From IMG/VR virus record IMGVR_UViG_3300021420_000019, positions 1 to 64,000 of that record: a stretch of 64,000 nucleotides of DNA, one strand, 5' to 3'. The DNA is from a virus. The position numbers were made by a program, and so were the translations under genes. The notes beneath the pieces are model-generated. The model saw nothing but the letters and a program-made list of their open reading frames with translations, had not been told where the DNA came from and ran no database searches. Below, piece by piece: positions 49,689-62,661 of the stretch. Position 1 is the first letter of the stretch. The number at the start of each line of letters is the position of its first letter.

Positions 49689-50388
49689 TTTTTGACCTAA
49701 ACTACTATGTAAAAATTACTGTCACCAACTGTTGGTGTCAGCATTTTAGTCCCAATGGCTCGCCTCGCATTGTGTCACCAGATAATGCCGTGGGGATACA
49801 GACATCATATAGGAGACCATGCGAAGCACATCAGACCAGGGATTTCAGCATTAAGCTGGAAGTGACCCAAGCTGATTAAGCGCTAACTCTTCGACAACAT
49901 AAACGCTTAAGCCATAAAGCCAAAGGTCAGCGATGCATTAGAGCAGCCTGGAAATATTCTGGTTCAGAAATTTTCAGGAAATTTGACGCACAAAATGACA
50001 AAAACGGCGAAAATCGGCGCAATAAGTATATTAAAGCAATATGTTTGCAACGATAAGTGCAACAAAACAAAGGTATTTGCTGCAAAACGCAACAAAATGA
50101 GCCGATTAACGACCGTCAGGACGCTAATCGAGGAATAATAAGAGCGGATGGAAGAGACTCCTTTCTATATAGCTGAAAACAAAAGAGATACCCGGGTGGA
50201 GTCCAGGAGTCCGCATCGCCCCCGGCACCCGTCGATGCCCGATGACGAATACGAAGGCGTCAAAAGTCCCACTAGTACGCAGTAATAACGTAAGGCACTC
50301 TAAGTACTTCATTTTAAAGATGTTACGTCAAAACTGAGTTTGTTTATTGGTCTGAGAAAGCTTTTAAGACCGTTTTTAAGAATGGGAA

Positions 50389-50467
50389 CACCCCGACATC
50401 GAATCGGGAGTGCGCTGGGAAGAGTCTCATAGCTCTTCCCGGCACCCTACTATGAGAGGGGTATATG
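50389..50467 (+). promoter_or_regulatory. Kissing-loop leader RNA, copy A
   Basis: Stem 50414-50424/50433-50443; loop TCTCATAG complements CTATGAGA (50450-50457) at the RBS. Confidence 0.75.
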
Positions 50468-51034
50468 AAAAGAGTTAGAGATAGTTTGTTGTCTCCGGAG
50501 GACTTTGCTCGTCTTAGGGCAATGTCCCCTAAAGTACCTAAAGAAGCCATAGCGTTAAAACAGCGGAAAGAGTCCTCTCCCTTTAGGAAGAGGTTGAAGG
50601 TTTCTCCTGTTGTAGTCCTAGAAAGGGTAGAAAAGCCCGAACTCAGTAAAGACTATCTATCTTTGAGGGCTGCCATATCCGATCCTAGGTTACCTGTTGC
50701 AAAAGCCTCTTCGAACATCAAAGATGTGTTGTTTATTGGAGACGGTCAGCATATTTGGAAAAGCCAGTGGGTGGCGCTAGCGTGGGCGGAGAAGCATAAG
50801 AGTTCCAAAACCCGAGTCCGTTGGGCTAGTAGTTTTTATTCTATTAAAGGCTACATATTTGCAAGGAACGGTCATAACGAAGCGGAACAGATGTTGAAGT
50901 GGTGGGACGGGTTGTTGAATATCGTACCATATGAGATTCCACTCCCCCCTCCTCCATCAGATGAAGAATTGTTAGCCTGGTGGAAAGAGTTAGAAGCAAA
51001 AATGGCAGAAGTAGGTATGAAGGACAAACAATGA
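50465..51034 (+). CDS. Hypothetical protein
   Basis: 189 aa; GAGGGG RBS. Confidence 0.65.
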   Translation: MKRVRDSLLSPEDFARLRAMSPKVPKEAIALKQRKESSPFRKRLKVSPVVVLERVEKPELSKDYLSLRAAISDPRLPVAKASSNIKDVLFIGDGQHIWKSQWVALAWAEKHKSSKTRVRWASSFYSIKGYIFARNGHNEAEQMLKWWDGLLNIVPYEIPLPPPPSDEELLAWWKELEAKMAEVGMKDKQ

Positions 51035-51456
51035 CCGAAACCAACTACGTTAACCGAGTAGACCAGACGCGTCTCCAGAAGATAGACGGCAGCAAGCTGG
51101 CCGAATCCGTGGACGAGGAACTCTACCCCCGACGGGACAGAAAGATCGGAACTGATCCAGTACCCGTGGCCCCTCTTGTTCCTACGAGCATATATCCGTC
51201 CCTTTGGGCTAGCGCTAACCAAGACCCGCCGAAAGCGGGCGACACCATAACCACGGACCTGGATTGGGTAAATTCTACCGAACCGGACGAGCTTCCTGAC
51301 GATGGTATTGGGAACGTGGCACCGACTCCAGCACCCGAACCACCCTTTGCACTTTACTTTGGTCCCAGTCGAGAAGAGTTTGAAACGTTTAAGAAACAAG
51401 TTGTCGCGGCTTTGCGCCATATAGGCGTAGATGTAAGAAAGTACTTCGAAGTATAA
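51031..51456 (+). CDS. Hypothetical Pro/Asp-rich protein
   Basis: ATGA overlap with the previous stop. Confidence 0.6.
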   Translation: MTETNYVNRVDQTRLQKIDGSKLAESVDEELYPRRDRKIGTDPVPVAPLVPTSIYPSLWASANQDPPKAGDTITTDLDWVNSTEPDELPDDGIGNVAPTPAPEPPFALYFGPSREEFETFKKQVVAALRHIGVDVRKYFEV

Positions 51457-51465
51457 ATTGGGAAA

Positions 51466-51540
51466 CGTCCCTCCTGATCCGAGGGTACGAGTCGGGGTGG
51501 CTCACTCCACCCCGGCATCCCTAGTGAGAGGGAATAAATG
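51466..51540 (+). promoter_or_regulatory. Kissing-loop leader RNA, copy B
   Basis: Loop CTCACT (51501-51506) complements loop AGTGAG (51523-51528). Confidence 0.8.
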
Positions 51541-52353
51541 CACATCAGCGAGAAACAAGTTCCTGGGAAGGAACACACATTTGTAGCTGTGAATGGAAAG
51601 ACCGAGACTGGGACTTTACCCGCTCTTCGTGGGCAAAGCAACTCTTTTGCGTTTTGGGTTAAAGACGAAGCTTGCATAAACGGTGGGTACTGGCGATCCC
51701 AGCTATATTTAACTCAGCGTAGAAAGGATTGGTCTACCGGAAAGAATGGCTTATTAGGGAGAATGAGGAACCTAATGAATAGCCAGAAGCAACAAGCTCA
51801 AAGAAACGGGCACAAGCCACCACTTGTTACTGCCGAACAGATGTCATCAATGTGGGTGTCCCAGAACGGTTTATGCGCTGCTTGCGGTGGTCAGTTGAGT
51901 TTATTAGGTGCTGCTTTTGACCACAATCATGAAACTGGCGAACCACGCGGCTTCCTTCATCAATATTGCAATATCGCTGAAGGATGTACAACGCGGATGA
52001 CGGAAGAAGAATTCAGAAAATTTGTAGAGTTTATCGGGAGTATTAAGATGAAGCATGATAAAGCGTACGATCAGCCAACCAACATGGCTAACGCTGGCAC
52101 GACCACACCGGCGGCTAAGGTATCTGGCGATATCAAGAATGATGCCCTAGGCAACCCGAGCCGGTTCGCACGTAACGCGAGCACCTCGGTGACCGAAGAC
52201 ACTAACTCTGAGATCGATACCCTCCGCGAGCTTCAACTCGGTTCAAACGGATATCAGGCAAATGGGTACCACCCCAGGGTGGCGAACTCCCCAGTTCCTA
52301 CGAGAGGTTTCGGAGAAAGTAAGGCAGATGTAGGCGGGTACCAAGGCGAGTAA
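51538..52353 (+). CDS. Endonuclease VII-like domain fused to an unrelated low-complexity C-terminal protein
   Basis: QNGLCAAC...FDHNHETGEPRGFLH..CN; internal GGGAG-ATG at MKHDK. Confidence 0.75.
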   Translation: MHISEKQVPGKEHTFVAVNGKTETGTLPALRGQSNSFAFWVKDEACINGGYWRSQLYLTQRRKDWSTGKNGLLGRMRNLMNSQKQQAQRNGHKPPLVTAEQMSSMWVSQNGLCAACGGQLSLLGAAFDHNHETGEPRGFLHQYCNIAEGCTTRMTEEEFRKFVEFIGSIKMKHDKAYDQPTNMANAGTTTPAAKVSGDIKNDALGNPSRFARNASTSVTEDTNSEIDTLRELQLGSNGYQANGYHPRVANSPVPTRGFGESKADVGGYQGE

Positions 52354-52563
52354 CGTGACGGTGAAAGAGTTAATCTCGGAACTCCAAAAGAGAGACCCAG
52401 AGAGTCGGGTCTTTATGGGCTACGACGGAAACGTAGTAGTATCTGAATCAGATTCGGTTGTATCGCCTTCAGAAGAGGAGATCGAAGTCTGCTGGTGGTC
52501 TGTAAGGCCGGGCGATACAGTTATTTTGTGTAACGAGTAAATAAAGCTTGACAGGAGACTAAA

Positions 52564-52734
52564 ATGATTGTAGGATTAGCACTAATCGCAGTAGCAAGTT
52601 TCGCGTACGCGGTCTACAAGCACATGACCTTGTCTTCGGTCAAGGCCGCCGTTCTAGCGGAAGTTACAAAGGTCGAAGCGTCGGTTGTGCCCGAGGTTAA
52701 GGCACTCGCGGCAGCCATAAAGGCAAAACTGTAG
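52564..52734 (+). CDS. Small membrane protein
   Basis: 56 aa; AGGAG RBS; N-terminal hydrophobic helix; not in the ORF track. Confidence 0.55.
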   Translation: MIVGLALIAVASFAYAVYKHMTLSSVKAAVLAEVTKVEASVVPEVKALAAAIKAKL

Positions 52735-52741
52735 ATTCAAT

Positions 52742-52818
52742 GGCGGACGGGGCGATACAGGTGACGCCCCAGACTGTGAATCTGGGTATAGTGGGTTCAA
52801 GGCCCATCGTCCGCCCCA
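52742..52818 (+). tRNA. trnH: tRNA-His(GTG) with encoded G-1 and CCA
   Basis: CCAGA-CT-GTG-AA-TCTGG. Confidence 0.9.
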
Positions 52819-52830
52819 AAAATTGTTACG

Positions 52831-52912
52831 CAGGTCCAAATCCTAGCGTGATGACCTGATCGGGGAGTGCCAGTAACACTCCCTGATTTGACTCTTTACT
52901 GGAGGGTCTATG
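52831..52912 (+). promoter_or_regulatory. Kissing-loop leader RNA, copy C
   Basis: Loop CCAGTAA (52870-52876) complements loop TTACTGG (52896-52902). Confidence 0.8.
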
Positions 52913-53410
52913 AGCAGTGCAAAAGATATGCGAGCGCAGTTGGGGATGTATCCTACAACCGCCAGGCATAAGTTAAATAGATTGATAATGTTTTCTTTAG
53001 TTCAGAAGTCCGGATTGGATTTGTGCTTTCGATGCGGAGAGAAGATACTGACGCCGAAAGAATTATCGGTAGACCATAAGTTGCCTTGGTTTCGTATTTC
53101 CACGGAGCTGTTTTGGGATTTAGAGAACATAGCCTTCTCACATTTCTCCTGTAACTCGGAAGAGGGCCGGTCGAGAAATCCGAGCAATACTAGGAATCCG
53201 AATTTAATAGCTCCTGACGGGATGCTATGGTGCAGTAGATGTAAGGATTATAGACATATTGAAGATTTTAGTCCATCTAGACGAAAGTCTAATGTTGGGC
53301 ACGTCTGTAGAAAATGCGTATCAGATAAAGAGAAAACACGCTATTCTAAAGCTGTAAATCGTCCGGTTAGAGGCTACCGACAAACTATGAAAGCCTCAAA
53401 AGATTTTTGA
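52910..53410 (+). CDS. HNH endonuclease (paralog of 56423..56860)
   Basis: CFRCGE...SVDHKLPW...FWDLENIAFSH..CN. Confidence 0.85.
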   Translation: MSSAKDMRAQLGMYPTTARHKLNRLIMFSLVQKSGLDLCFRCGEKILTPKELSVDHKLPWFRISTELFWDLENIAFSHFSCNSEEGRSRNPSNTRNPNLIAPDGMLWCSRCKDYRHIEDFSPSRRKSNVGHVCRKCVSDKEKTRYSKAVNRPVRGYRQTMKASKDF

Positions 53411-53419
53411 AAATAAGTG

Positions 53420-53448
53420 TTGACAAACAAAACGGTTTGTGAGACACT
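53420..53448 (+). promoter_or_regulatory. Promoter of the main tRNA array
   Basis: TTGACA, 17 nt, TGA-GACACT. Confidence 0.6.
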
Positions 53449-53671
53449 ATGAAAGTCGAGAACGGAGATACCCACCGACTAATGTCACGGGCTTCGCTCG
53501 ACAAAGTTTGATACTGTTTCATGCCGGAGAGATGCTAAAGCCGTGCACGGCTAATCTGGTGTGATGACATCGACCGGAGTCACTCCCTTTAGGGCGTGAA
53601 CTCCTTAGCCTGGTCAGCCGTTGACGCGAAGGCATCCGGTCTAGAACGTTTTCGTCGGCGAATATTTTTAT

Positions 53672-53746
53672 CCTTGTCTGATGTTAATGGTAGCATTCCT
53701 GTTTGAAGCACAGGCTGTAACCGTTCGAGCCGGTTGGCAAGGACCA
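53672..53746 (+). tRNA. trnF: tRNA-Phe(GAA)
   Basis: CCTGT-TT-GAA-GC-ACAGG; CCA. Confidence 0.85.
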
Positions 53747-53828
53747 GTTAGAGACATGCGGAGTCCGCGACGGATAGAAACGGCGCGGAATCCTACAGCG
53801 AGACGCAAGTCACCATGTCCACGTTTAT

Positions 53829-53916
53829 GCGTCTGTGGATGGAATAGGCAGACACGTCGGTCTCAAAAACCGATGACAGAGATGGCGTGGGAGTTCGAGT
53901 CTCCCCGGACGCACCA
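53829..53916 (+). tRNA. trnL: tRNA-Leu(CAA)
   Basis: TCGGT-CT-CAA-AA-ACCGA; variable arm; CCA. Confidence 0.9.
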
Positions 53917-53923
53917 ATTTTAT

Positions 53924-54013
53924 TGTGGGCAGCATTGGATGCAGCGGACACTTATAAAGTCCGAATCAGCAGATCGCTGAGCCGATAGGGTCCGATTCCC
54001 TAGTCCACAACCA
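53924..54013 (+). tRNA. trnI: Atypical tRNA with TAT anticodon (Ile), long variable arm, short D-arm
   Basis: GGAC-A-CT-TAT-AA-A-GTCC; TCAGC/GCTGA arm; CCA. Confidence 0.7.
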
Positions 54014-54018
54014 AGTTT

Positions 54019-54104
54019 GCCGTTGTGACGGAATGGTATACGAGGGAGTCTTAAAAACTCCTGTGCTCACGCACATGCTGGTTCGAGTCCAGTCAACGGC
54101 ACCA
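54019..54104 (+). tRNA. trnL: tRNA-Leu(TAA)
   Basis: GGAGT-CT-TAA-AA-ACTCC; CCA. Confidence 0.9.
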
Positions 54105-54108
54105 ATCT

Positions 54109-54176
54109 GGCGGAGACAGAGGTTCGATTCCTCTCTTAGGTCACTGACCCGAGTCGTCTAGCGGCAGGATACCGCC
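54109..54176 (+). ncRNA. Circularly permuted tRNA-like element (Y RNA/YrlA-like topology)
   Basis: Order: GGCGG, variable loop, T-arm, loop-closed acceptor-like stem, D-arm, CCGCC. Confidence 0.7.
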
Positions 54177-54431
54177 TAACAAGATCGCAAGTCCTACGGG
54201 GCGAACGATAGAACACGGCAGGGCGAACTCGGGTGGAAACACTTTAGAGCATCTGTGCTCCGTGGGCTCGGGGAACGCGACATCCCCAGAATTTGATATT
54301 CCAGAGACCTGTAAGTCCCTGATACGGCAAGGTCCCGGATTGCCAGGACGGTGCTACGCGCCACGATGGGGCCGCTTTGATGCTACTGGGCCAAGTTAAC
54401 CAGTCAGTCCTGGCATAGGTATTCAAGTTTT

Positions 54432-54507
54432 GAATTCGTAGCTCAATTGCTAGAGCAATCGACTCTTACTCGATGGGTTGTGGGTTGGACTCCCACCGGA
54501 TTCACCA
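54432..54507 (+). tRNA. trnK: tRNA-Lys(CTT)
   Basis: ATCGA-CT-CTT-AC-TCGAT; CCA. Confidence 0.88.
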
Positions 54508-54577
54508 AGTTTGACGTTCACTTAACAGTGAGATAACGACCGTAGCGGTTTCGCGTGACTCCGCCGTCAAAAGATTC

Positions 54578-54652
54578 GGATCGCTAATTCAAAGGCTAGA
54601 AGCGCTCTCTTTTAAAGAGTTAATCTCCGTTCGAGTCGGAGGCGATCCACCA
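54578..54652 (+). tRNA. trnK: tRNA-Lys(TTT)
   Basis: GCTCT-CT-TTT-AA-AGAGT; CCA. Confidence 0.88.
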
Positions 54653-54660
54653 AGTTCTAT

Positions 54661-54748
54661 TGAGCCCATGACACAATGGTGTGTCCCTTCTCTGTAAAAG
54701 AAGCGGTCCTTGCGACCACGGTCAGTTCGATCCTGACGGGCTCAACCA
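54661..54748 (+). tRNA. trnY: tRNA-Tyr(GTA)
   Basis: CTTCT-CT-GTA-AA-AGAAG; variable arm; CCA. Confidence 0.85.
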
Positions 54749-54749
54749 T

Positions 54750-54824
54750 AGTCGAGTAGCACAATGGCGGTGCAGACTCTTGATAGGAGTAAGGCTGTCC
54801 GTTCAAGTCGGACCTCGACTACCA
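54750..54824 (+). tRNA. trnI: tRNA-Ile(GAT)
   Basis: ACTC-TT-GAT-AG-GAGT; CCA. Confidence 0.85.
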
Positions 54825-54900
54825 ATATTGATATCCGGGGGACTAACTAGGAGCCGTATAGCAGCCTAGTTCAATGCTGTACGGGAAACCTCCCCGGCGT

Positions 54901-54975
54901 GGGCGATGAGTAGGACGGGAATATTCCTGCTTTGCAAGCAGCGAGAAATCGGTTCGACTCCGATATTGTCCACCA
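54901..54975 (+). tRNA. trnA: tRNA-Ala(TGC)
   Basis: CTGC-TT-TGC-AA-GCAG; G3:U70 pair; CCA. Confidence 0.8.
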
Positions 54976-54982
54976 AATTTAC

Positions 54983-55054
54983 ACCCTGTTCGCCAAGCGG
55001 CTAAGGCATCTGGTTTACACCCAGACATTCGGGAGTTCAAATCTCTCACGGGGT
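54983..55054 (+). tRNA. trnV: tRNA-Val(TAC), irregular acceptor stem, no encoded CCA
   Basis: TCTGG-TT-TAC-AC-CCAGA. Confidence 0.7.
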
Positions 55055-55055
55055 A

Positions 55056-55132
55056 CGGGCTGTTCGTTCACCGGAATAGGACACGACGCTACGAACGTCG
55101 AAAAAAGAGTTCGATTCTCTTACGGCCCTCCA
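55056..55132 (+). tRNA. trnR: tRNA-Arg(ACG)
   Basis: CGACG-CT-ACG-AA-CGTCG; CCA. Confidence 0.88.
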
Positions 55133-55136
55133 TCTT

Positions 55137-55212
55137 GACCCTGTAACTCAGCGCACAGAGTGTCCGCCTTCGAAGCGGTTCGCCGGGGGTTGGAATCCCT
55201 CCAGGGTCTCCA
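55137..55212 (+). tRNA. trnR: tRNA-Arg(TCG)
   Basis: CCGC-CT-TCG-AA-GCGG; CCA. Confidence 0.85.
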
Positions 55213-55321
55213 GTATGTTGTAATACGAAGCGTAACACAACAGAAGGCGGCTACCAGTTGTGGGTAGGTCGCAAGTGAAATCCAAAGCACGTTCGGTGAT
55301 AGCCCGGACAACATTTTCTGT

Positions 55322-55409
55322 TAAGGCGTAGGGGAATTGGTAGACCCGCTCGGCTGTTACCCGAGAGTCGTAAAGACACCTGTAGGTTCGAAACCTACCG
55401 CCTTAGCCA
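55322..55409 (+). tRNA. trnN: tRNA with GTT (Asn) anticodon and long variable arm
   Basis: CTCGG-CT-GTT-AC-CCGAG; GTC-GTAAA-GAC arm; G73; CCA. Confidence 0.8.
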
Positions 55410-55417
55410 CTTTCAAA

Positions 55418-55492
55418 GGACGATTAGTTTAATCGGTAGAACTGCTGTCTTGTAAACAGCGGGAAATGGTTCGAGACCATTATCGTCCTCCA
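55418..55492 (+). tRNA. trnT: tRNA-Thr(TGT)
   Basis: GCTGT-CT-TGT-AA-ACAGC; CCA. Confidence 0.88.
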
Positions 55493-55564
55493 AGTTTTGT
55501 CTCTCGGTCATTATGGCCAAGCCGAGAAAATCTCTGTGGCGCAGAGTAAAGACAAAAAGTTTAA

Positions 55565-55639
55565 GCAGGGCTAGTATAATCGGTAGTACGCGCCCCTCGT
55601 AAGGTCGTAATGCGTGTTCGAGTCACGCGCCCTGCTCCA
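55565..55639 (+). tRNA. trnT: tRNA-Thr(CGT)
   Basis: CT-CGT-AA loop; CCA. Confidence 0.85.
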
Positions 55640-55700
55640 AGTTAAGCGGTGCCTCACTCTGATGTCCAGGTTAAATGTTCAGACAGCCGCTCTTGATTTT

Positions 55701-55774
55701 GCTGGCATAGCTCAATGGAAGAGCTTCCGCTTGGTAAGCGGAGGACTTGAGTCCGATTCTCAATGCTAGCTCCA
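55701..55774 (+). tRNA. trnT: tRNA-Thr(GGT)
   Basis: TCCGC-TT-GGT-AA-GCGGA; CCA. Confidence 0.88.
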
Positions 55775-55781
55775 ATTTTAC

Positions 55782-55859
55782 GGCCTGTTGGTCCAGCCTG
55801 GAGTGGACGCGTCCTTGTCACGGACGAGATCGTGGGTCCGAATCCCACACGGGTCGCCA
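55782..55859 (+). tRNA. trnD: tRNA-Asp(GTC)
   Basis: CGTCC-TT-GTC-AC-GGACG; G73; CCA. Confidence 0.9.
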
Positions 55860-55864
55860 TTTAC

Positions 55865-55938
55865 GGCCCTGTCGATTAGTGTCAGGTCATTCGCTTCTCA
55901 AGCGAACAGCAGCGGTTAGATTCCGCTCAGGGCCACCA
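55865..55938 (+). tRNA. trnE: tRNA-Glu(CTC)
   Basis: TTCGC-TT-CTC-AA-GCGAA; CCA. Confidence 0.85.
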
Positions 55939-55943
55939 AGTTT

Positions 55944-56020
55944 GAGGACATGGTCCAATCGGTAGCGATGCTGGCCTTTCAAGCCATGCGGTGCGGGTTC
56001 GAGTCCCGCTGTCCTTACCA
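55944..56020 (+). tRNA. trnE: tRNA-Glu(TTC)
   Basis: TGGC-CT-TTC-AA-GCCA; CCA. Confidence 0.85.
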
Positions 56021-56032
56021 AATCGAGGAACT

Positions 56033-56293
56033 ATGAGCTGGGTGATGGTTAACGACTTCACCGTCGTGGAAAGAAAAGAAGACGGCACGGTAACACAGCA
56101 GGTGTTCACCTCGCACGCCCAGGCCCGTCAGTTCATGGAGAAGTACGCGGGACAAAAACCTATGAGGCCGCACAAGCCCACGATGCCTAGTCACGCTCGC
56201 GCTAGGTCCGGTAGTTCAAAGCCTATCATCCCGCAGACAGCGGAACAGATAGCGCTGAGAGAAGCGGCGCTGAAACAGTTTAACGGTTTGTAA
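56033..56293 (+). CDS. Hypothetical protein inside the tRNA array
   Basis: GAGGA RBS, start MSWVMVNDF; fills the gap between tRNAs. Confidence 0.6.
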   Translation: MSWVMVNDFTVVERKEDGTVTQQVFTSHAQARQFMEKYAGQKPMRPHKPTMPSHARARSGSSKPIIPQTAEQIALREAALKQFNGL

Positions 56294-56300
56294 GTTTAAT

Positions 56301-56387
56301 CCGCTGGTGATGGAATTACCAGACATGCGAATCTTAGAAATTCGTGCCCTATGTGGCGTGGGAGTGGAAGCCTCCCCCGGCGGACCA
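56301..56387 (+). tRNA. trnL: tRNA-Leu(TAG)
   Basis: CGAAT-CT-TAG-AA-ATTCG; variable arm; atypical T-loop; CCA. Confidence 0.85.
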
Positions 56388-56422
56388 ATTTAAATCTTAT
56401 CAACGACCGGGAGGTCAACGAT

Positions 56423-56860
56423 ATGAAACTGAAAGACGAATCTAAGTCAGAGCGTCGCGCTAATCAATTAGGAATGTCTTACGGTACAGCATCCGGTAGA
56501 CTTCGTAAGATGATACTATTTGATGTATTGAGAAAGCACAGCGAGAATAAATGTTTTAAGTGCGGCGAATTGATAGAGTCCGAAAAAGACTTAAGCATCG
56601 AGCATAAACAGCCCTGGGAAAATAAAAATCCCGATCTGTTTTGGGATTTAAATAACATCGCTTTTTCTCACATGTGCTGCAACATACCGCATGTTTATAA
56701 GGGCAGCGGAGCGTCACTTAGAAAGATCGGTCCGGAAGGAACTTCGTGGTGCTGGCAGCATAAAGAATTTTTACCAATTGGAGAATTTTATACGGATTCT
56801 TCAAATTGGAACGGTCTACACAGCAGATGTAAATCTTGTCATAAGTCTAGACCTAGATAG
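56423..56860 (+). CDS. HNH endonuclease (paralog of 52910..53410)
   Basis: CFKCGE...SIEHKQPW...FWDLNNIAFSH..CN; GGAGG RBS inside a GACC/GGTC hairpin. Confidence 0.85.
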   Translation: MKLKDESKSERRANQLGMSYGTASGRLRKMILFDVLRKHSENKCFKCGELIESEKDLSIEHKQPWENKNPDLFWDLNNIAFSHMCCNIPHVYKGSGASLRKIGPEGTSWCWQHKEFLPIGEFYTDSSNWNGLHSRCKSCHKSRPR

Positions 56861-56867
56861 TTTCTAC

Positions 56868-56942
56868 TGCCCGTTATAGTTCTGTTGAACTTCGAGGTCT
56901 CATAAGCCTTGCAGGTTGGTTAGATTCCAACACGGGCTACCA
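56868..56942 (+). tRNA. trnM: tRNA with CAT anticodon (Met, fMet or Ile2 unresolved)
   Basis: GAGGT-CT-CAT-AA-GCCTT; 1:72 mismatch; CCA. Confidence 0.75.
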
Positions 56943-56948
56943 CTTTAA

Positions 56949-57022
56949 GCGTCTGTGATGTAACGGTAGCATATTTGACTGCCAGTCAAATCGTCTCGAT
57001 TCGAATTCGAGTAGACGCCCCA
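56949..57022 (+). tRNA. trnG: tRNA-Gly(GCC)
   Basis: TTTGA-CT-GCC-AG-TCAAA; CCA. Confidence 0.85.
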
Positions 57023-57240
57023 CATTGATGTTCGCCTGTCCGTGGCGCGAGTAATTACCGCAGCCGCCCAGGCCGGAGCCCGATCCCGAGAGTGTAAAAC
57101 GTCATAGTCGGAAAAATTTATGAGTGAACAAAAACAGTGTTTAGAGTGCAAAGTTCCGATACACGAGGGTCCATTCGGCCCGTACATAGTGTATCTAAAC
57201 GAAGACGGAACTCCACATATTTGCGATAAGAAATAGTTTT

Positions 57241-57314
57241 GCAAGCATGGTATATAGATTGTGCCCCGGCCTTCCAAGTCGGAGAATCGAGTTTGAGTCT
57301 CGATGCTTGCTCCA
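57241..57314 (+). tRNA. trnG: tRNA-Gly(TCC)
   Basis: CCGGC-CT-TCC-AA-GTCGG; CCA. Confidence 0.85.
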
Positions 57315-57321
57315 AGTTTAT

Positions 57322-57396
57322 ATGAGAGTCGTCCAGCGGCCAGGACTGCGGTCTCCAAAACCGCGTACGGTGGTTCGAGTCCATCCTCTCATGCCA
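57322..57396 (+). tRNA. trnW: tRNA-Trp(CCA)
   Basis: GCGGT-CT-CCA-AA-ACCGC; CCA. Confidence 0.9.
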
Positions 57397-57401
57397 ATTT
57401 T

Positions 57402-57478
57402 GTCTCTATAGCTTAACGGATAAAGCGCCGAGCTTCTACCTCGGGACCACGCGGGTTCAATTCCTGCTAGAGACTCCA
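57402..57478 (+). tRNA. trnR: tRNA-Arg(TCT)
   Basis: CCGAG-CT-TCT-AC-CTCGG; CCA. Confidence 0.9.
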
Positions 57479-57554
57479 ATTTTCGTGGCCGCCCTAACGG
57501 GTATAAAACTATCGGGACGATATAGACGGCGAAAATTCCCGAGCGGAAGATTAC

Positions 57555-57630
57555 GGACGCGTAGCACAGCGGACAATGCGGCTCTCCCCTAAAGAGTCAG
57601 GCCCAGGTTCAACTCCTGGCGCGTCCCCCA
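57555..57630 (+). tRNA. trnR: tRNA-Arg(CCT)
   Basis: GCTCT-CC-CCT-AA-AGAGT; CCA. Confidence 0.85.
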
Positions 57631-57874
57631 GTTCTACCGAGGTCTCATGTGGACCGCAGTCGTTGATGGCTACATCATAACACAAAGAATGTCCGATGAC
57701 GACGTGTGGTTCAGATGTAACTTGTTCGGAAGGGAGCCGTTGATAGACGCACTTGAGAGGTTCCTGAAAGATACCGAAGACAATGGACACAAAGACTAAG
57801 AACGGGCTCCTGCGGCTCTCGATACTGTGGGGCCCGATAGCGATCTTGGTTATCTCGATTTTGACGAATTAGTT

Positions 57875-58164
57875 TGGCAGTCTAGACAATCGCGGGGAAC
57901 CGAGGAAAGTCAGGACACAACTAAGTACAGTGCCGTGGGAGATGCGGGCCGGGCAACCGGACGGGTAAGCCTCCGTATCGCATTGCGAGTTAACACTCTC
58001 GTTGCGTTCATTGGAGCGGAGACAGTCCACACTGGTGCAATCGAAAATAGGACCTGAGCGTTTACTTAGCGTGTTGAGGGTCGGGTTTCGAGCAAAGAGG
58101 AATGATTGTCGCCGCGACTTGTGTAGTATCGTTCGCGGAACAAAATCCTGCTTATTGACTGCCA
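57875..58164 (+). ncRNA. rnpB: Compact RNase P RNA
   Basis: GAGGAAAGTCAGGAC (57902-57916) and AACAAAATCCTGCTTAT (58139-58155) form P4; P1 TGGCAGTC/GACTGCCA; P2 GACAATC/GATTGTC. Confidence 0.88.
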
Positions 58165-58178
58165 CACTTTAGGATCAT

Positions 58179-58391
58179 ATGCCGCAATCAGTTGACGAAA
58201 TTCTAGCAGGCGCAAAGGAAACATTGGCGAACGCCAACAAGGCCTTCCCGAGTTCTTCTCCAGCGCCCCCGCAACCGCAGAAGCCCTCTTACACTGCGGC
58301 GCACGCAGCGAGAAAGGCCGTCCCGAGTATGGGCGATGAGCTAGCGGCTAAGGGCACGATGGTCGATAAAGCGAAACAGGCGTTGAAGTAA
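58179..58391 (+). CDS. Hypothetical protein
   Basis: 70 aa; AGGA RBS; PSY.AA motif also seen in 3740..3994. Confidence 0.55.
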   Translation: MPQSVDEILAGAKETLANANKAFPSSSPAPPQPQKPSYTAAHAARKAVPSMGDELAAKGTMVDKAKQALK

Positions 58392-58395
58392 TTAC

Positions 58396-58481
58396 GGAGC
58401 GGTGCCGAAACGGTAGCCGGATATGTTTGCTAAACATACGTCCGAAAGGACGTGGGAGTTCGAGTCTCTCCCGCTCCGCCA
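58396..58481 (+). tRNA. trnS: tRNA-Ser(GCT)
   Basis: TATGT-TT-GCT-AA-ACATA; variable arm; CCA. Confidence 0.9.
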
Positions 58482-58617
58482 GATTGAATACTTGTCCGAA
58501 AGGGCATAGGGAACCTTAAACGGTAAAGACGCGAGAATATCTAAAAGCTATTCGAAGCGGACCTTGCAGTCGAAAGACGAAACTGAGAATCTTAGCAAGG
58601 GGTTCCCGAGCATTTAT

Positions 58618-58701
58618 GGAAAGCAGTCGGCAATGGTGCCTCACAGTCTTGAAAACTGTACCACCCGCAAGGGTGACGGAGTTCGATTCTCCGGCTTTCC
58701 T
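58618..58701 (+). tRNA. trnS: tRNA-Ser(TGA), no intact CCA
   Basis: ACAGT-CT-TGA-AA-ACTGT; variable arm. Confidence 0.8.
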
Positions 58702-58703
58702 CC

Positions 58704-58777
58704 GTCCGAGTCGGCAAATGATAAGCTAGTCGTCCGCAAAACGACAATCGCTGGTTTGATTCCAGCCTCGGACTCCA
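58704..58777 (+). tRNA. trnC: tRNA-Cys(GCA)
   Basis: GTCGT-CC-GCA-AA-ACGAC; U73; CCA. Confidence 0.85.
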
Positions 58778-58786
58778 AATTTCTAT

Positions 58787-58860
58787 TCCCTTGTCGGCTA
58801 AAGGCAGGCCACGAGTCTTTGAAACTCGTTACGGACGTTCGACCCGTCCCGAGGGAACCA
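58787..58860 (+). tRNA. trnQ: tRNA-Gln(TTG)
   Basis: CGAGT-CT-TTG-AA-ACTCG; CCA. Confidence 0.88.
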
Positions 58861-58867
58861 TTTCTAC

Positions 58868-58942
58868 TCCCGTGTCGGCTAACTGGAAGGCCAGCGCCCT
58901 CTGAAGGCGTTAATTTTCGTTCGAATCGAAACGTGGGAACCA
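58868..58942 (+). tRNA. trnQ: tRNA-Gln(CTG)
   Basis: GCGCC-CT-CTG-AA-GGCGT; CCA. Confidence 0.85.
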
Positions 58943-58946
58943 TTTC

Positions 58947-59372
58947 ATGAAGAAACTGTTACTCGCTCTCGTGTTAATTTTGGCTCTCGCGACACCAGCG
59001 CAGCCGAGGCACCACGCGAGCCAAGGTATCATCATCGAGATTCACGCGAGCACCACGTACGAGACCGGCAGGTTGAAGCGGTTATCAGATAAGCTCAACT
59101 TCGACGGACAGCATATGGTCCCTTGGTGGAGAATCGTAGTTCTGAACAAAGCCGATTGGACAGATGCTCTCATTAAGTATAACCTCGAAGGGCAAACTGA
59201 TAGCGCGTTCACCGTCCTAGGTCAGAACGTGACATTCGTGAACGAAGACTATATCGGCTTTGCCGATGACGCTAGGTTAGAACACACGCTAGCCCACGAA
59301 AGTGCTCATTTGATTTGTTCATGCACTAGTGAAGATACCGCGAATAAGATCGCGAAGATTCTAGAGAAGTAA
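58947..59372 (+). CDS. Exported HExxH metallopeptidase-like protein
   Basis: Signal peptide; LAHESAH...SE..AN. Confidence 0.7.
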   Translation: MKKLLLALVLILALATPAQPRHHASQGIIIEIHASTTYETGRLKRLSDKLNFDGQHMVPWWRIVVLNKADWTDALIKYNLEGQTDSAFTVLGQNVTFVNEDYIGFADDARLEHTLAHESAHLICSCTSEDTANKIAKILEK

Positions 59373-59449
59373 GCCGAGCAGAGGCTCCGAATTCGGAACG
59401 GTACGTTCTCGTTAGATGCTCTGTAAAGGATACGAGATCAGGTACTACA

Positions 59450-60205
59450 GTGAGAAAGTTTCTCGCATTGGCTCTATCGTTGGTCCTACTTATCTCCGGA
59501 TCAGCCGTACTCATTACGGGCGCACCAAGATCGTTTGAACCCCAGGCTCGCGCAGCCACGGGCGCTATCTTCGTTGATGCTGACCGTAGATTCGAATGTT
59601 CCGGAACTGAAATAGCTCACACGAAAGACGGTGACGGAATATTTTTGACGGCTCGTCATTGCGTTGCTTCTGTCGAAACAAACAAGATCACTCGGCGCAT
59701 GCAACTGTCCTTTTCAGACAACATGGGCGGACCTTACTACGATGCCGTACCGATTGCGATTTCAACCAGTGATGATCTAGCTCTTCTGCTTGTTAGAAAT
59801 GGTGCGAGCATTCCAGAGGTGAAGATCAAGGACGAGCGTAGGCTACGCGGCGGTGATCCGATCTTTAACGTTAGCTACCCTCTCGGAGCAGGTAAGTTAA
59901 TTTTTCATGGGGAATATTTAGCTCCCAGGTTCCCGATGTTTCCTGGCATACTTGCGGATTACCCCATGTGGCAGTTCGCGATGCCAGCAAATATTACGTG
60001 GGCTCACGGGTCCAGTGGTAGTGGGGTCTTCAGTAGCGGGCAGCGTGCTTTGATCGCGGTCTGTGTCGGAACGTTTTCTGAGGGCAGTTTCAACGTGGCA
60101 ATCCCCGCAGATAGAGTACTTGACTTTCTTGCGGATTTATCGGATAATACAGTTGAACGGTTTGCTTTGCAAAACCCTGAGAAGGAAGAAGTAGAAGTCT
60201 TTTAA
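59450..60205 (+). CDS. Exported trypsin-like serine protease
   Basis: CSG, LTARHC, DLALL, GSSGSG; N-terminal hydrophobic segment. Confidence 0.88.
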   Translation: MRKFLALALSLVLLISGSAVLITGAPRSFEPQARAATGAIFVDADRRFECSGTEIAHTKDGDGIFLTARHCVASVETNKITRRMQLSFSDNMGGPYYDAVPIAISTSDDLALLLVRNGASIPEVKIKDERRLRGGDPIFNVSYPLGAGKLIFHGEYLAPRFPMFPGILADYPMWQFAMPANITWAHGSSGSGVFSSGQRALIAVCVGTFSEGSFNVAIPADRVLDFLADLSDNTVERFALQNPEKEEVEVF

Positions 60206-60218
60206 TTTAATCAGATAC

Positions 60219-60294
60219 GTTCCGCATAATTAACGGAACCAGGCTTGGGAGAGCCCCTACTCTCCCAGGCCGACTCTTAAGGGAGAGACAAATG
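60219..60294 (+). promoter_or_regulatory. Kissing-loop leader RNA, copy D
   Basis: 12-bp stem 60242-60253/60260-60271; loop CCCCTA pairs with TAAGGG at 5/6 positions. Confidence 0.65.
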
Positions 60295-60942
60295 AAAGGA
60301 CATCTTTACAGATATCCGCATCCGTATAGTTCAGATAAGTTTATTTACGCCGGGCAGGGCGAGAAACGCGATAATGAGCATCGCGGTGGCCGAACTAGTT
60401 TCGGTCGTAGATTCGAGAAACTATTTCCCGGCATTGAATTGCCGAATCCGGTAAGAGAGACGATTGAAGTCCGAGATTATTTAGAGCTAAATGAACTAGA
60501 AATAATCTGGATGTTTCAATATCATACTTGGCGTGGATATCCTGGCGGAATGAATTTAACTTTACCCGGGTCAATCGATTATAGGAGTATGGGTTTAATC
60601 GGCGGACGTGTTCAGGGCCCTAAGAACGTAGAATCGGGGGCGCTAGCAAAAATCCAAAGTGCAGGCGGGCGTGTTAGCGGTCGAATGAATTCTGAGTCCG
60701 GACGTATTCAAGAACTCGGTCACACGCAGGGTCGTAAGAATGTTGAAAGCGGGCAACTTGCCAGTATACAAAGTATGGCCGGTCGTGCCGGTGGGCGCAT
60801 AGCTTTAGAAAGCGGACAATTTTCTGGAATCAGAAGCAGAGGTAATCATAGTCGTTGGCACATAGCCCGTGGTATTTCTAGACCGAGTGTTTGTTCGTTG
60901 TGTGCAGAAACAGAAAATTTAACGAGAACTAGCTTAACGTAG
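60292..60942 (+). CDS. GIY-YIG-like homing endonuclease with repeated (N)VESG C-terminal units
   Basis: HLY...IYAGQ..R...LNELE...GMNLT. Confidence 0.75.
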   Translation: MKGHLYRYPHPYSSDKFIYAGQGEKRDNEHRGGRTSFGRRFEKLFPGIELPNPVRETIEVRDYLELNELEIIWMFQYHTWRGYPGGMNLTLPGSIDYRSMGLIGGRVQGPKNVESGALAKIQSAGGRVSGRMNSESGRIQELGHTQGRKNVESGQLASIQSMAGRAGGRIALESGQFSGIRSRGNHSRWHIARGISRPSVCSLCAETENLTRTSLT

Positions 60943-60996
60943 AGCACGTGCTTTGGAAGCACGGGGGTGAAGTTTCGAGCACTTCGTTCTCGACCA
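60923..60996 (+). tRNA. trnP: tRNA-Pro(TGG), overlapping the end of the upstream ORF
   Basis: CGTGC-TT-TGG-AA-GCACG; CCA. Confidence 0.82.
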
Positions 60997-61004
60997 GTTT
61001 AAAA

Positions 61005-61078
61005 CGGAAATTCTGATAATGGTAGTCTCTACGTTTCGGATACGTAGGGCGGACGTTCGATTCGTCCATTTCCGACCA
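61005..61078 (+). tRNA. trnP: tRNA-Pro(CGG)
   Basis: TACGT-TT-CGG-AT-ACGTA; CCA. Confidence 0.82.
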
Positions 61079-61087
61079 CATTAAAGT

Positions 61088-61117
61088 GAGCTTCCAGAAA
61101 TGGGGGCTCTTGTATTT
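61088..61117 (+). terminator. Possible terminator after the tRNA array
   Basis: GAGCTTCC-loop-GGGGGCTC followed by TTGTATTT. Confidence 0.45.
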
Positions 61118-61128
61118 CTAGGAGTGTC

Positions 61129-62661
61129 ATGGCTACAGTAACTCAGCAGTTAGGCAGAGCAGCGGCGTATGATCTATTGGCGGCAGCGGGCATTACGAAC
61201 ACAGGTTCAAGTATTATTGCCGGGGGAAACGTAGGAAGCTTTCCCACAGCAACCTACACTCTTGATGGAATGATCTTTATTCCTCCCGCAGCATTAGATT
61301 CAGCAGACGCTCAGAACGCCCAGATCGACAACAATGCCGCCTTCCTCTTCTTCCAAGCTCTGCCTCAGACAATGGCCCTCTCAACAGCCGACATCGGCGC
61401 GACCGGCATTCAACACAGCCCCGGTGCCCCCAATGGCACCTACTATCCTGGCGTATATGTTTCCCCAAGTTCAATTGCAATTTCTACTCCAGTCACTCTA
61501 GATGCGCAGGGCAATCCTAACGCGGTGTTCGTATTTTATTCTACGGGTTCAACTATCACTCAGGCTATAGCTGGCACAATTAACTTGGTCAACGGAGCAA
61601 AGGCCGCTAACGTAGTGTGGCTCGTGGGTAGCTCTTGGACTAGTATCGGCCCCGGCGCTTTGACACAGGGCAACATTATTGCGGCCACCTCTATCACTTT
61701 AGGTGGGGGAGTACTCAATGGTAGGGCACTCGCGGGAGCGGTAAACTCCAGCGGAGCGATCACGATAGCTGCGGCAGAAAGTATCACTGCTCCGGCCAGC
61801 GTCGGTACTCCAACTACAGCGGGCGGTCAAGCTCAAGCTTTGATCGCTACACAACCTGGGGTTTCGGTTCCCACGGCTTATCCTCAAGTTACAGGCCAAG
61901 GAATTATTCCTCCTCAAGATTTGGATATGCTTCAGATCATCGGAGAGGGCGGAGATATTTTAGTATCTGTAGATTATCTTGGAACAGTTCATAACGTTAC
62001 AACTAGCCAGTCATCTACGTCTCCATTGACCTCAGTTGCGATCTCTTCGTTCCCAATTACCTCTGTCACATCAGCGGGAGTATACACCGGAACATTTCCT
62101 GCGGGCACGAATACAGTAGCCGGTCAGACTGCGGTCATCTCTGGCTTCACGAACGGCGGCAATAATGGAACGTTCACGATCACCGCATCTACAGCGACAA
62201 CTATCACCGTGACCCCGAACACGCAAGTTAACGAGAGCGCTTCGGCTCAAGCGTTAATTACGGGCTTTAGTCAAAGTACCTATAACGGAACTATCACAAA
62301 CGGCGCGGCCAGCGGGCTCGCCGGACGCTTTGTTTCGGTCACTGGCTTCACGAACTCGGGTAACAACATCTCTAACACCTTGGTTATCTCAAGCACCGCG
62401 ACAACTATCGTGACATCTTACACCGCGCAGGTCGCTGAGACACACGCGGCTACCGCCACTGTGTCTGCGTCGTTCACGCCGTCTAACGGCTGCCGATTGG
62501 GCCAGTATTTCACGAGGCTCCTACCCGGTGCAACTATCGCTCAGTTATTTACCGACGCTTTTGCTAACCCCAGTCTCTTGGACATCGTCCATGTGTATGT
62601 ACCGAATAGTGGGGCCATCGTCTACATTTTGGATCACAACGGCGTGGCTAGTGGCAGCTAA
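61129..62661 (+). CDS. DUF3494 ice-binding-like beta-solenoid fused to Thr-rich beta repeats (probable virion protein)
   Basis: LA..GITNTG, PGVY, VTLDAQGNPNAVFVF, LVNGAKAANVVW.VGSS, GNIIA..SITL, GRALA; no signal peptide. Confidence 0.85.
   Translation: MATVTQQLGRAAAYDLLAAAGITNTGSSIIAGGNVGSFPTATYTLDGMIFIPPAALDSADAQNAQIDNNAAFLFFQALPQTMALSTADIGATGIQHSPGAPNGTYYPGVYVSPSSIAISTPVTLDAQGNPNAVFVFYSTGSTITQAIAGTINLVNGAKAANVVWLVGSSWTSIGPGALTQGNIIAATSITLGGGVLNGRALAGAVNSSGAITIAAAESITAPASVGTPTTAGGQAQALIATQPGVSVPTAYPQVTGQGIIPPQDLDMLQIIGEGGDILVSVDYLGTVHNVTTSQSSTSPLTSVAISSFPITSVTSAGVYTGTFPAGTNTVAGQTAVISGFTNGGNNGTFTITASTATTITVTPNTQVNESASAQALITGFSQSTYNGTITNGAASGLAGRFVSVTGFTNSGNNISNTLVISSTATTIVTSYTAQVAETHAATATVSASFTPSNGCRLGQYFTRLLPGATIAQLFTDAFANPSLLDIVHVYVPNSGAIVYILDHNGVASGS

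Follow-up and report, generated by a model that had tools for sequence, protein, structure and literature searches.

We identified a structured leader RNA upstream of four genes in the window, a 64,000-nt stretch of virus DNA (IMG/VR record IMGVR_UViG_3300021420_000019, positions 1 to 64,000) at the start of one virus contig of 101,523 bp. We consider it fairly probable that this leader is a cis-acting translational lock of free-standing homing endonuclease cassettes in soil phages of ~100 kb. The leader consists of a G-rich hairpin (H2), with a loop of 6-8 nt that starts with CC, followed by a short hairpin (H3) whose loop, the K segment, is complementary to the H2 loop at every position (the exception is copy 4 of the window, in which five of six positions pair). 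The Shine-Dalgarno sequence (SD), GGAG, straddles the end of the H3 loop and the 3' arm of H3, and in all copies it is divided between the loop-loop helix and that arm. We favor a translational lock because the invariant base pairs of the leader involve the SD, the spacing to the start codon is tight, the gene starts that carry the leader are highly structured, and there is a precedent in the endonuclease genes of T-even phages.

The leader occurs in seven copies in the genome and in many related phages

There are seven copies of the leader in the 101.5-kb phage genome, all with a common architecture and with differing primary sequence. An earlier note on this DNA had described four; that number holds for the window, and three further copies start at genome positions 71513, 78750 and 82431. 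The genes behind these three are two mutually related nuclease-like genes without a family match and one EndoVII-like gene.

We scanned the genome with a descriptor. A match needed a stem of 7 bp or longer with a 5- to 9-nt loop, a perfectly complementary run of 6 nt or more no farther than 12 nt away, and an ATG shortly after it. There were seven matches on the coding strand (six leaders and an unrelated-looking site at 61088), compared to 0.4 on average and 2 at most in 40 dinucleotide shuffles under the same descriptor, indicating that the number of matches was greater than expected by chance. We then included 72 related viral contigs (809 kb total) that were found by a search with the portal protein. 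In these loci and the genome together, the descriptor gave 70 instances, 55 of them distinct and one a false positive inside a portal gene, with more than 35 different loop sequences. Altogether, there were ~90 further copies of the leader in related ~100-kb soil phage contigs, and one further contig had an endonuclease homologue behind a leader with new stems and new loops. The EndoVII gene at 51538, used as a single-protein query against viral contigs, found no relatives.

The site at window positions 61088-61131 is an 8-bp hairpin (two of the pairs are G-U) whose 6 loop nucleotides are all complementary to the 6 nt next to the AGGAG of the gene at 61129. The product of that gene (window 61129-62661) has 510 amino acids and an ice-binding-like domain (Pfam PF11999, E 8e-29). 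The site has no H3, precedes a non-endonuclease gene, was not matched by covariance model R1 (described below), and may be due to chance, as ~0.4 such sites are expected per genome.

The loops covary and their pairing is maintained

The descriptor demands complementarity and so cannot test the loop-loop pairing. Covariance model R1 was built with eight copies of equal geometry as the seed, and its structure was H2 and H3 only; the loop-loop pairing was not encoded. An alignment of the copies made with MAFFT was out of structural register and was not used for the model. In 934 kb, R1 had 67 matches, 50 of them distinct, and each was on the same strand as the gene behind it. When the loop-loop helix was scored as a pseudoknot in the R1 alignment, standard base pairs were present in 99.7% of 878 cells, in contrast to 76% for column shuffles and 36-65% for slid partners. 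Changes on both sides were found in 16 of the 18 pairs.

The loop-loop helix was paired in 100% of the sequences, and five of its seven positions covaried, with three or four types of base pair at each. The only invariant pairs in the alignment were those of the CC of the H2 loop with the GG of the SD. The CU-AG pairs of H3 were nearly invariant, as was the GGAG at the loop-stem junction, and H3 also covaried. The earlier note had stated that the primary sequence diverges and the pairing is kept, and had suggested a covariance model as the check; with the eight-copy seed there was strong covariation in the homologs, in the loop-loop helix and in the SD hairpin alike. There were 16 G-U cells versus 3 unpaired cells, and the mirror A-C pairs were rare, indicating that the sequences fold as sense-strand RNA and not as a DNA cruciform. 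Two of the window copies rest on direct inspection: copy 1, which R1 mis-aligned (9 bits), and copy 2, which R1 matched weakly (13 bits).

We also did an independent pattern scan in which the commonest inner stem and the GGAG were fixed and the five variable loop positions were free. There were 55 matches in viral contigs. Of these, 39 also had the outer G run of H2, and all 39 were complementary at 5/5 of the variable positions, with ~19 different loop sequences among them; the other 16 matches looked random. With the same pattern in cellular genomes, 0/120 matches were complementary at 5/5.

All helices are present in the four copies in the window

We checked every helix of window copies 1-4 by coordinates, counting G-U as a pair. 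All of the helices were present, and the four leaders are where the earlier note had placed them, in front of the ATGs at 50465, 51538, 52910 and 60292. The features are as follows.

50389..50412, + strand: upstream hairpin (H1) of copy 1; core arms 50392-50396 and 50404-50408; 5/5 pairs; in the minimum free energy (MFE) fold; no promoter-like site
50414..50443, + strand: H2 of copy 1; G-rich 11-bp stem, loop 50425-50432; 11/11 pairs; in the MFE fold
50445..50461, + strand: H3 of copy 1; K segment 50450-50457; loop-loop 8/8; H3 4/4; 3' arm (50458-50461) part of the SD
50465..51034, + strand: gene behind copy 1; 189 amino acids, ORFan
51469..51485, + strand: H1 of copy 2; 5/5 pairs
51491..51516, + strand: H2 of copy 2; 10 bp, loop 51501-51506; 10/10 pairs; R1 score 13.1 bits with filters off
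51518..51533, + strand: H3 of copy 2; K segment 51523-51528; loop-loop 6/6; H3 5/5; 3' arm is the SD
51538..52353, + strand: gene behind copy 2; EndoVII-type nuclease, 271 amino acids; Pfam PF02945, E 7.5e-11; PHROG endonuclease VII families
52831..52858, + strand: H1 of copy 3; 6/6 pairs; directly after tRNA-His (52743-52818)
52858..52888, + strand: H2 of copy 3; 12 bp, loop 52870-52876; 12/12 pairs including G-U; R1 score 34.4 bits
52890..52908, + strand: H3 of copy 3; K segment 52896-52902; loop-loop 7/7; H3 6/6; 3' arm is the SD
52910..53410, + strand: gene behind copy 3; HNH endonuclease, 166 amino acids; Pfam PF01844, E 1.4e-5; PHROG 23251 HNH endonuclease, E 3e-20
60219..60239, + strand: H1 of copy 4; 6/6 pairs; in the MFE fold
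60242..60271, + strand: H2 of copy 4; 12 bp, loop 60254-60259; 12/12 pairs; R1 score 21.5 bits
60274..60287, + strand: H3 of copy 4; K segment 60278-60283; loop-loop 5/6, one internal C-A mismatch; H3 4/4; 3' arm is the SD
60292..60942, + strand: gene behind copy 4; 216 amino acids; probably a divergent GIY-YIG nuclease; repeats in the C-terminal half

As had been noted from the sequence, the last two loops are complementary and differ from copy to copy (8/8, 6/6, 7/7 and 5/6 positions paired in copies 1-4), and the short hairpin, with 4-6 bp in all four copies, has the purine half of the SD as its 3' strand. MFE folds contained H2 in 4/4 copies and the short SD-containing hairpin in 3/4; copy 2 folded differently around H2. 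The Z-scores of the folds ranged from -2.1 to -4.5. The mean fold energy at gene starts with a leader was -24.8 kcal/mol (6/7 were scored), compared to -11.2 +/- 5.6 kcal/mol at 76 other gene starts. Among the parts of the leader, computed energies were -12 to -23 kcal/mol for H2, -1 to -6 for H3, and -5 to -9 for the loop duplex.

Leaders are gained and lost with endonuclease genes and are swapped between them

Nearly all genes behind leaders encode homing endonucleases (GIY-YIG, HNH or EndoVII-like). There were 57 distinct proteins encoded behind leaders. By Pfam, 23 were EndoVII, 14 were GIY-YIG and a few were HNH, and 12 had NUMOD3 repeats. By PHROG, the same proteins included 34 of the endonuclease VII family, 14 GIY-YIG homing endonucleases, and 10 of another endonuclease family. 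The 27 distinct proteins from the pattern scan gave the same picture of families. About 78 of 103 endonuclease-like open reading frames (ORFs) in the loci carry a leader (near-misses were inspected).

For the window, the earlier note had listed three endonucleases of different families and one gene of unknown type. The EndoVII gene (51538) and the HNH gene (52910) were borne out by Pfam and PHROG, and the GIY-YIG assignment of gene 60292 found weaker backing. This gene had no match in Pfam, PHROG or NCBIfam; compared to the leader-associated GIY-YIG set using hhalign, it aligned in the matching register with 45% probability (E 2e-4), and a 60%-identical homologue in another contig is also behind a leader. 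From these comparisons, gene 60292 probably encodes a divergent GIY-YIG nuclease. The fourth gene, 50465, is an ORFan. It had no match in Pfam, PHROG or NCBIfam and matched only itself among 5.8 billion proteins, and the single-sequence structure prediction (pLDDT 40) was unusable. By association with its leader, which is a divergent copy, gene 50465 may encode a new nuclease or be some other selfish gene.

Comparisons between genomes indicated that the cassettes are mobile. Where the window genome has a leader and a gene 3' of the portal gene, three relatives have only 20-30 nt, an empty site. Two other relatives have the leader in common up to the start codon, and then a different endonuclease. 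The homologue of the portal-proximal gene of the window genome is located elsewhere in another relative, behind a different class of leader. Within the window genome itself, two near-identical leaders precede unrelated nucleases, and the difference between their loops is compensatory. The cassettes lie within operons of essential genes such as those for portal and capsid. We conclude that leader and endonuclease gene are gained and lost together and that leaders are swapped between genes. Together with the covariation, this co-movement upholds the proposal that the leader is shared, is conserved in structure, and is associated with mobile endonuclease genes from unrelated families.

In one cassette (L003:1867-2440), the endonuclease homologue appears to be frameshifted, as the start at 1917 is out of frame with the homology at 2001-2396. 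This cassette may be decaying while its leader stays intact.

The leader might chiefly act as DNA, as a recombination module similar to the PeSL cassettes of T4-type phages. It would then be a portable, conserved junction for the exchange of endonuclease ORFs, and the RNA fold would be incidental. Several of the arrangements would fit: a portal-proximal leader that some relatives keep up to the start codon with a different ORF behind it, the same ORF family behind another class of leader elsewhere, and two near-identical leaders before unrelated nucleases in the window genome. PeSLs also join a promoter to a stem-loop with G runs and then C runs (PMC2839356). We believe that this explanation is very unlikely. 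Recombination needs identity, yet the leaders diverge while their pairing persists; the common G-U pairs and rare A-C pairs point to selection on the sense-strand RNA; and the loop-loop covariation has no rationale at the level of DNA. A role in recombination can, however, coexist with a translational lock.

The upstream hairpin is not part of the conserved core

The leader had been described as having three hairpins. An upstream hairpin (H1, or hairpin 1) of 5-6 bp is indeed present in all four copies in the window, but it is not a conserved third element. Across copies, hairpin 1 is conserved neither in sequence nor in position, and the region 5' of H2 falls into several classes. As the upstream classes are variable and the window copies keep no more than a simple hairpin, hairpin 1 is not a conserved part of the core.

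Many of the relatives, and the three copies in the genome that are outside the window, have a sigma-70-like promoter 5' of H2. Two of the promoter-like sites outside the window were scored and had 10/12 and 9/12 matches, both with an extended -10. In the promoter-bearing copies, hairpin 1 is an inverted repeat within the promoter spacer, and for this reason it may be absent from the transcript of the cassette itself. The hairpin-1 repeats contained 47 G-U versus 14 A-C pairs, a hint that in read-through transcripts they fold as RNA too. There was no promoter-like site at window copies 1-3 in a scan for sigma-70-type sites, and none by eye at copy 4.

In class A leaders (L010:14880-14945, L014:12660-12725, and ~15 other loci), the upstream promoter-like -35 and -10 hexamers are complementary to each other via G-U pairs. 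These hexamers and the palindromic spacer form a hairpin of 11-13 bp, and the same DNA may be both a promoter and an RNA hairpin in read-through transcripts.

The predicted start of transcription in the promoter-bearing copies coincides with the base of H2 or precedes it by a few nucleotides, which would make H2 5'-terminal. This would be consistent with a leader that mainly controls the fate of the mRNA, either with H2 as a terminal hairpin that protects against decay from the 5' end or with the stacked helices as a processing site that frees the message from read-through transcripts, and with the pairing to the SD being secondary. The high stability of H2 and the location of cassettes inside operons of essential genes are also compatible with control of mRNA fate. 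However, a protective hairpin requires neither a loop complementary to the SD nor H3, the sole invariant pairs involve the SD itself, and H2 would be internal in the window copies, which have no promoter-like site. We consider it unlikely that this is the main function of the leader.

The leader would hide the SD in two pairings

We propose the following mechanism for the translational lock. The leader of the mRNA first forms the very stable, G-rich H2. The loop of H2 pairs with the stretch that ends in the GG of the GGAG, and H3 arises when the remaining AG(AG) of the SD pairs with a run of pyrimidines shortly before it. Between them, these pairings cover the whole ribosome binding site (RBS), 7-9 nt before the start codon. 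This would keep the 30S subunit off, such that synthesis of the nuclease would be low or conditional. The fold would be an H-type pseudoknot that alternates with H2 plus H3, or a strained kissing fold, and the full SD would never be free. Any relief would come from a factor acting in trans or from breathing of the structure, and not from an internal promoter as in T4.

Of the functions that the earlier note had put forward, a shared translational control element is the one that the covarying SD pairing and the association with cassettes would favor. The other, an RNA component of a mobile endonuclease unit (for example, a guide RNA), does not fit a leader in which every variable nucleotide is used in internal pairing. 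A HEARO-like guide RNA was rejected, as there was no Rfam match and no unpaired variable segment. We also rejected H2 as an intrinsic terminator, as the copies are generally without a U tract; only the copy at genome position 78750 was flagged as terminator-like, and weakly, with no flag at the window copies. The earlier note had pointed to the RBS-sequestering hairpins of T4; in T4, a late promoter inside the hairpin frees the RBS. We saw no promoter-like site between H2 and the SD in a scan that was for sigma-70-type sites and had phage-specific late promoters outside its reach, and with none seen inside the structure the T4 relief mechanism does not apply.

The geometry of the leader constrains how the two pairings could be combined. 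The end of the K segment is 7-9 nt from the start codon in 46/54 copies. At their maximal lengths, H2 and H3 are joined by a linker of 0 nt in 15/54 copies and of at most 1 nt in 22/54 (0-10 nt overall), and neither loop has a spare nucleotide, as every loop position is complementary. In a coaxial kissing complex, the bases of the two stems would be at opposite ends of at least ~19 stacked pairs, and a linker of 0-1 nt would be too short. On the other hand, an H-type pseudoknot in which the inner 7 bp of H2 combine with the loop helix appears feasible: the inner 7-bp stem is 6-17 nt from the K segment in all copies, a connector that we judge to be long enough by general pseudoknot rules. The connecting strand in this pseudoknot is the 5' arm of H3. 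The simplest reading of the geometry is that there are two alternating folds, each of which hides half of the SD, a dimer in trans being the other possibility. Thus, the loop-loop pairing that had been described as a kissing interaction is strongly supported by covariation, but a single fold in cis with both stems formed is doubtful given the short linkers and the loops without an unpaired nucleotide, and a pseudoknot or alternating folds are as likely.

Several points weigh against the translational lock. Where H2 and H3 abut, a kissing complex in cis with both stems formed at once is sterically doubtful, and the two helices that cover the SD (the loop-loop helix and H3) may never coexist. 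The SD is near consensus, which would be odd if weak expression were the sole aim. No mechanism of relief is visible, and the promoter-like sites, where present, are 5' of the whole structure. Finally, ~20 endonuclease-like ORFs (about a fifth) are without a leader, four of them in the window genome.

Pairing could also occur between two copies of one message, where the complementary loops would fit perfectly, with the H2 loop of one bound to the H3 loop of the other in a symmetric dimer. We regard dimerization in trans as quite improbable. If true, translation of each endonuclease would be shut off as the concentration of its own mRNA rises, and the cassette-specific loop would be an address that prevents cross-talk among the cassettes of one genome. 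In a related version, a bistable switch between pseudoknot and hairpin could be read by a shared phage factor.

An SD that is strong and also strongly sequestered suggests toggling, as might be expected if the leader were a regulated operator, an on/off switch and not a constitutive brake, with a trans-acting factor (an RNA-binding protein, helicase or nuclease of phage or host) that opens or cleaves the fold at a set time. A common fold before unrelated nucleases would mean that the regulator is shared and is not the nuclease itself, and the nearly invariant GGAG at the loop-stem junction would be in keeping with such an operator. However, conserved unpaired nucleotides from which a pocket for a protein or ligand could be built are lacking apart from the SD and the CC, and we identified no candidate factor. 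The chance that the leader is such an operator appears to be low.

Comparison to known leaders and cassettes

Structures that sequester the RBS are established for endonuclease genes of T-even phages (PMC2988022; PMC3014915). Like the hairpins of I-TevI, I-TevII, I-TevIII, segB and Aeh1 mobE, the leader described here is a cis RNA before a homing endonuclease gene and buries a good SD in a stable helix directly 5' of the start codon. Both types are found on several families of nucleases, the T-even hairpins on intron-encoded as well as free-standing genes. The T-even hairpins are single and have a late or middle promoter in the 5' arm, so that late transcripts escape, whereas the leader here has two hairpins with covarying complementary loops and its promoter-like sites are 5' of the whole fold. 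There is no similarity to the T-even hairpins in sequence or in model searches. We considered the stable pre-RBS hairpin of Aeromonas phage 25 seg43, which is unusual (PMC2988022), as a case of the same architecture and rejected it because its loop has no complementarity to the RBS.

The nearest modular analogue is the PeSL (promoter-early stem-loop) cassette of T4-type phages, a small portable unit with a sigma-70-like promoter and a stem-loop of G and C runs; PeSLs flank accessory genes and are points of exchange (PMC2839356; PMC4122927). A promoter and a stem-loop are both present in many of the relatives and in three of the genome copies, but the order is reversed, and the promoter is absent from window copies 1-4. 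The PeSL stem-loop is a terminator 5' of the promoter and is unrelated to the RBS, whereas the stem-loop here is 3' of the promoter-like site and pairs with the RBS. In addition, PeSLs are associated with ORFans in general, and the present leaders specifically with endonucleases.

Guanidine-II (mini-ykkC), preQ1 and SAM-II riboswitches have tandem hairpins, or a hairpin and a 3' tail, next to the SD, and tertiary pairing mediated by the loop gates access of the ribosome. Riboswitches keep invariant loop nucleotides that bind the ligand, and guanidine-II has two hairpins with conserved ACGR tetraloops. In contrast, the positions in the leader loops vary freely if they are complementary, which argues against a ligand pocket; the loops are 6-8 nt, and only the first two positions (CC) are invariant. 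In IncI-alpha and IncB plasmids, the leader of repZ or repA has a hairpin whose loop pairs with its complement directly 5' of the RBS of the regulated gene. This pseudoknot activates translation, and an antisense RNA that binds the loop blocks its formation. Unlike in repZ and repA, part of the SD is itself paired in the leader here, which has no known antisense partner.

The earlier note could not match the leader to a named motif, and our searches agree. Only tRNAs were matched in the whole window by Rfam 15 at the gathering threshold, and only tRNA-His was matched in a search of 50300-53000 with E values up to 5. No description of an RBS leader with paired loops was found in the literature that we searched, and the leader family appears to be unregistered in Rfam.

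Homing endonucleases are selfish genes, and their expression must spare the phage that carries them. To our knowledge, control of this expression is known only for a handful of genes of T-even phages. The roughly one hundred leaders described here, with near-perfect covariation, would represent control of endonucleases by an architecture different from that of the T-even phages, one that travels with the gene as a ready-made expression module. The leader would be a compact natural lock of the SD, with specificity set by five free base pairs, and could serve as a tunable part. It is also a marker with which new endonuclease-like genes could be found, the ORFan at 50465 being an example, and a test case for the coexistence of loop-loop pairing with an abutting hairpin. 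In addition, it gives an initial view of how genes are regulated in large soil phages with no more than a distant relationship to a cultured phage of Acidobacteriota.

Genome context of the leaders

The window genome encodes a family A DNA polymerase, a primase-polymerase, a ribonucleotide reductase, a terminase, and an SU10-type portal protein. In a search with the portal protein, the nearest cultured relative was Tunturiibacter phage Tunturi_3 (37% identity), a soil phage with an Acidobacteriota host. The leader was not found in the first 50 kb of Tunturi_3, and a blastn search with the whole region had no match among the phages in GenBank. The DNA of the window is present in full in one soil metagenome, a possible source. 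In a soil metatranscriptome, three short contigs overlap 51575-51895 and 52314-52513 with at least 99% identity; the start of the transcript could not be read from these contigs and carry-over of DNA is possible, so we drew no inference from them.

There are 31 tRNA genes in the window (52743-61078), interleaved with endonuclease genes. Copy 3 of the leader begins about a dozen bases past tRNA-His, and T4 segB is likewise located in a tRNA region. Endonuclease-like genes without a leader are found at window positions 56351-56860, at genome positions 92083-92779, and as two ORFs on the minus strand near window 45.8-47.6 kb; one is within the tRNA array.

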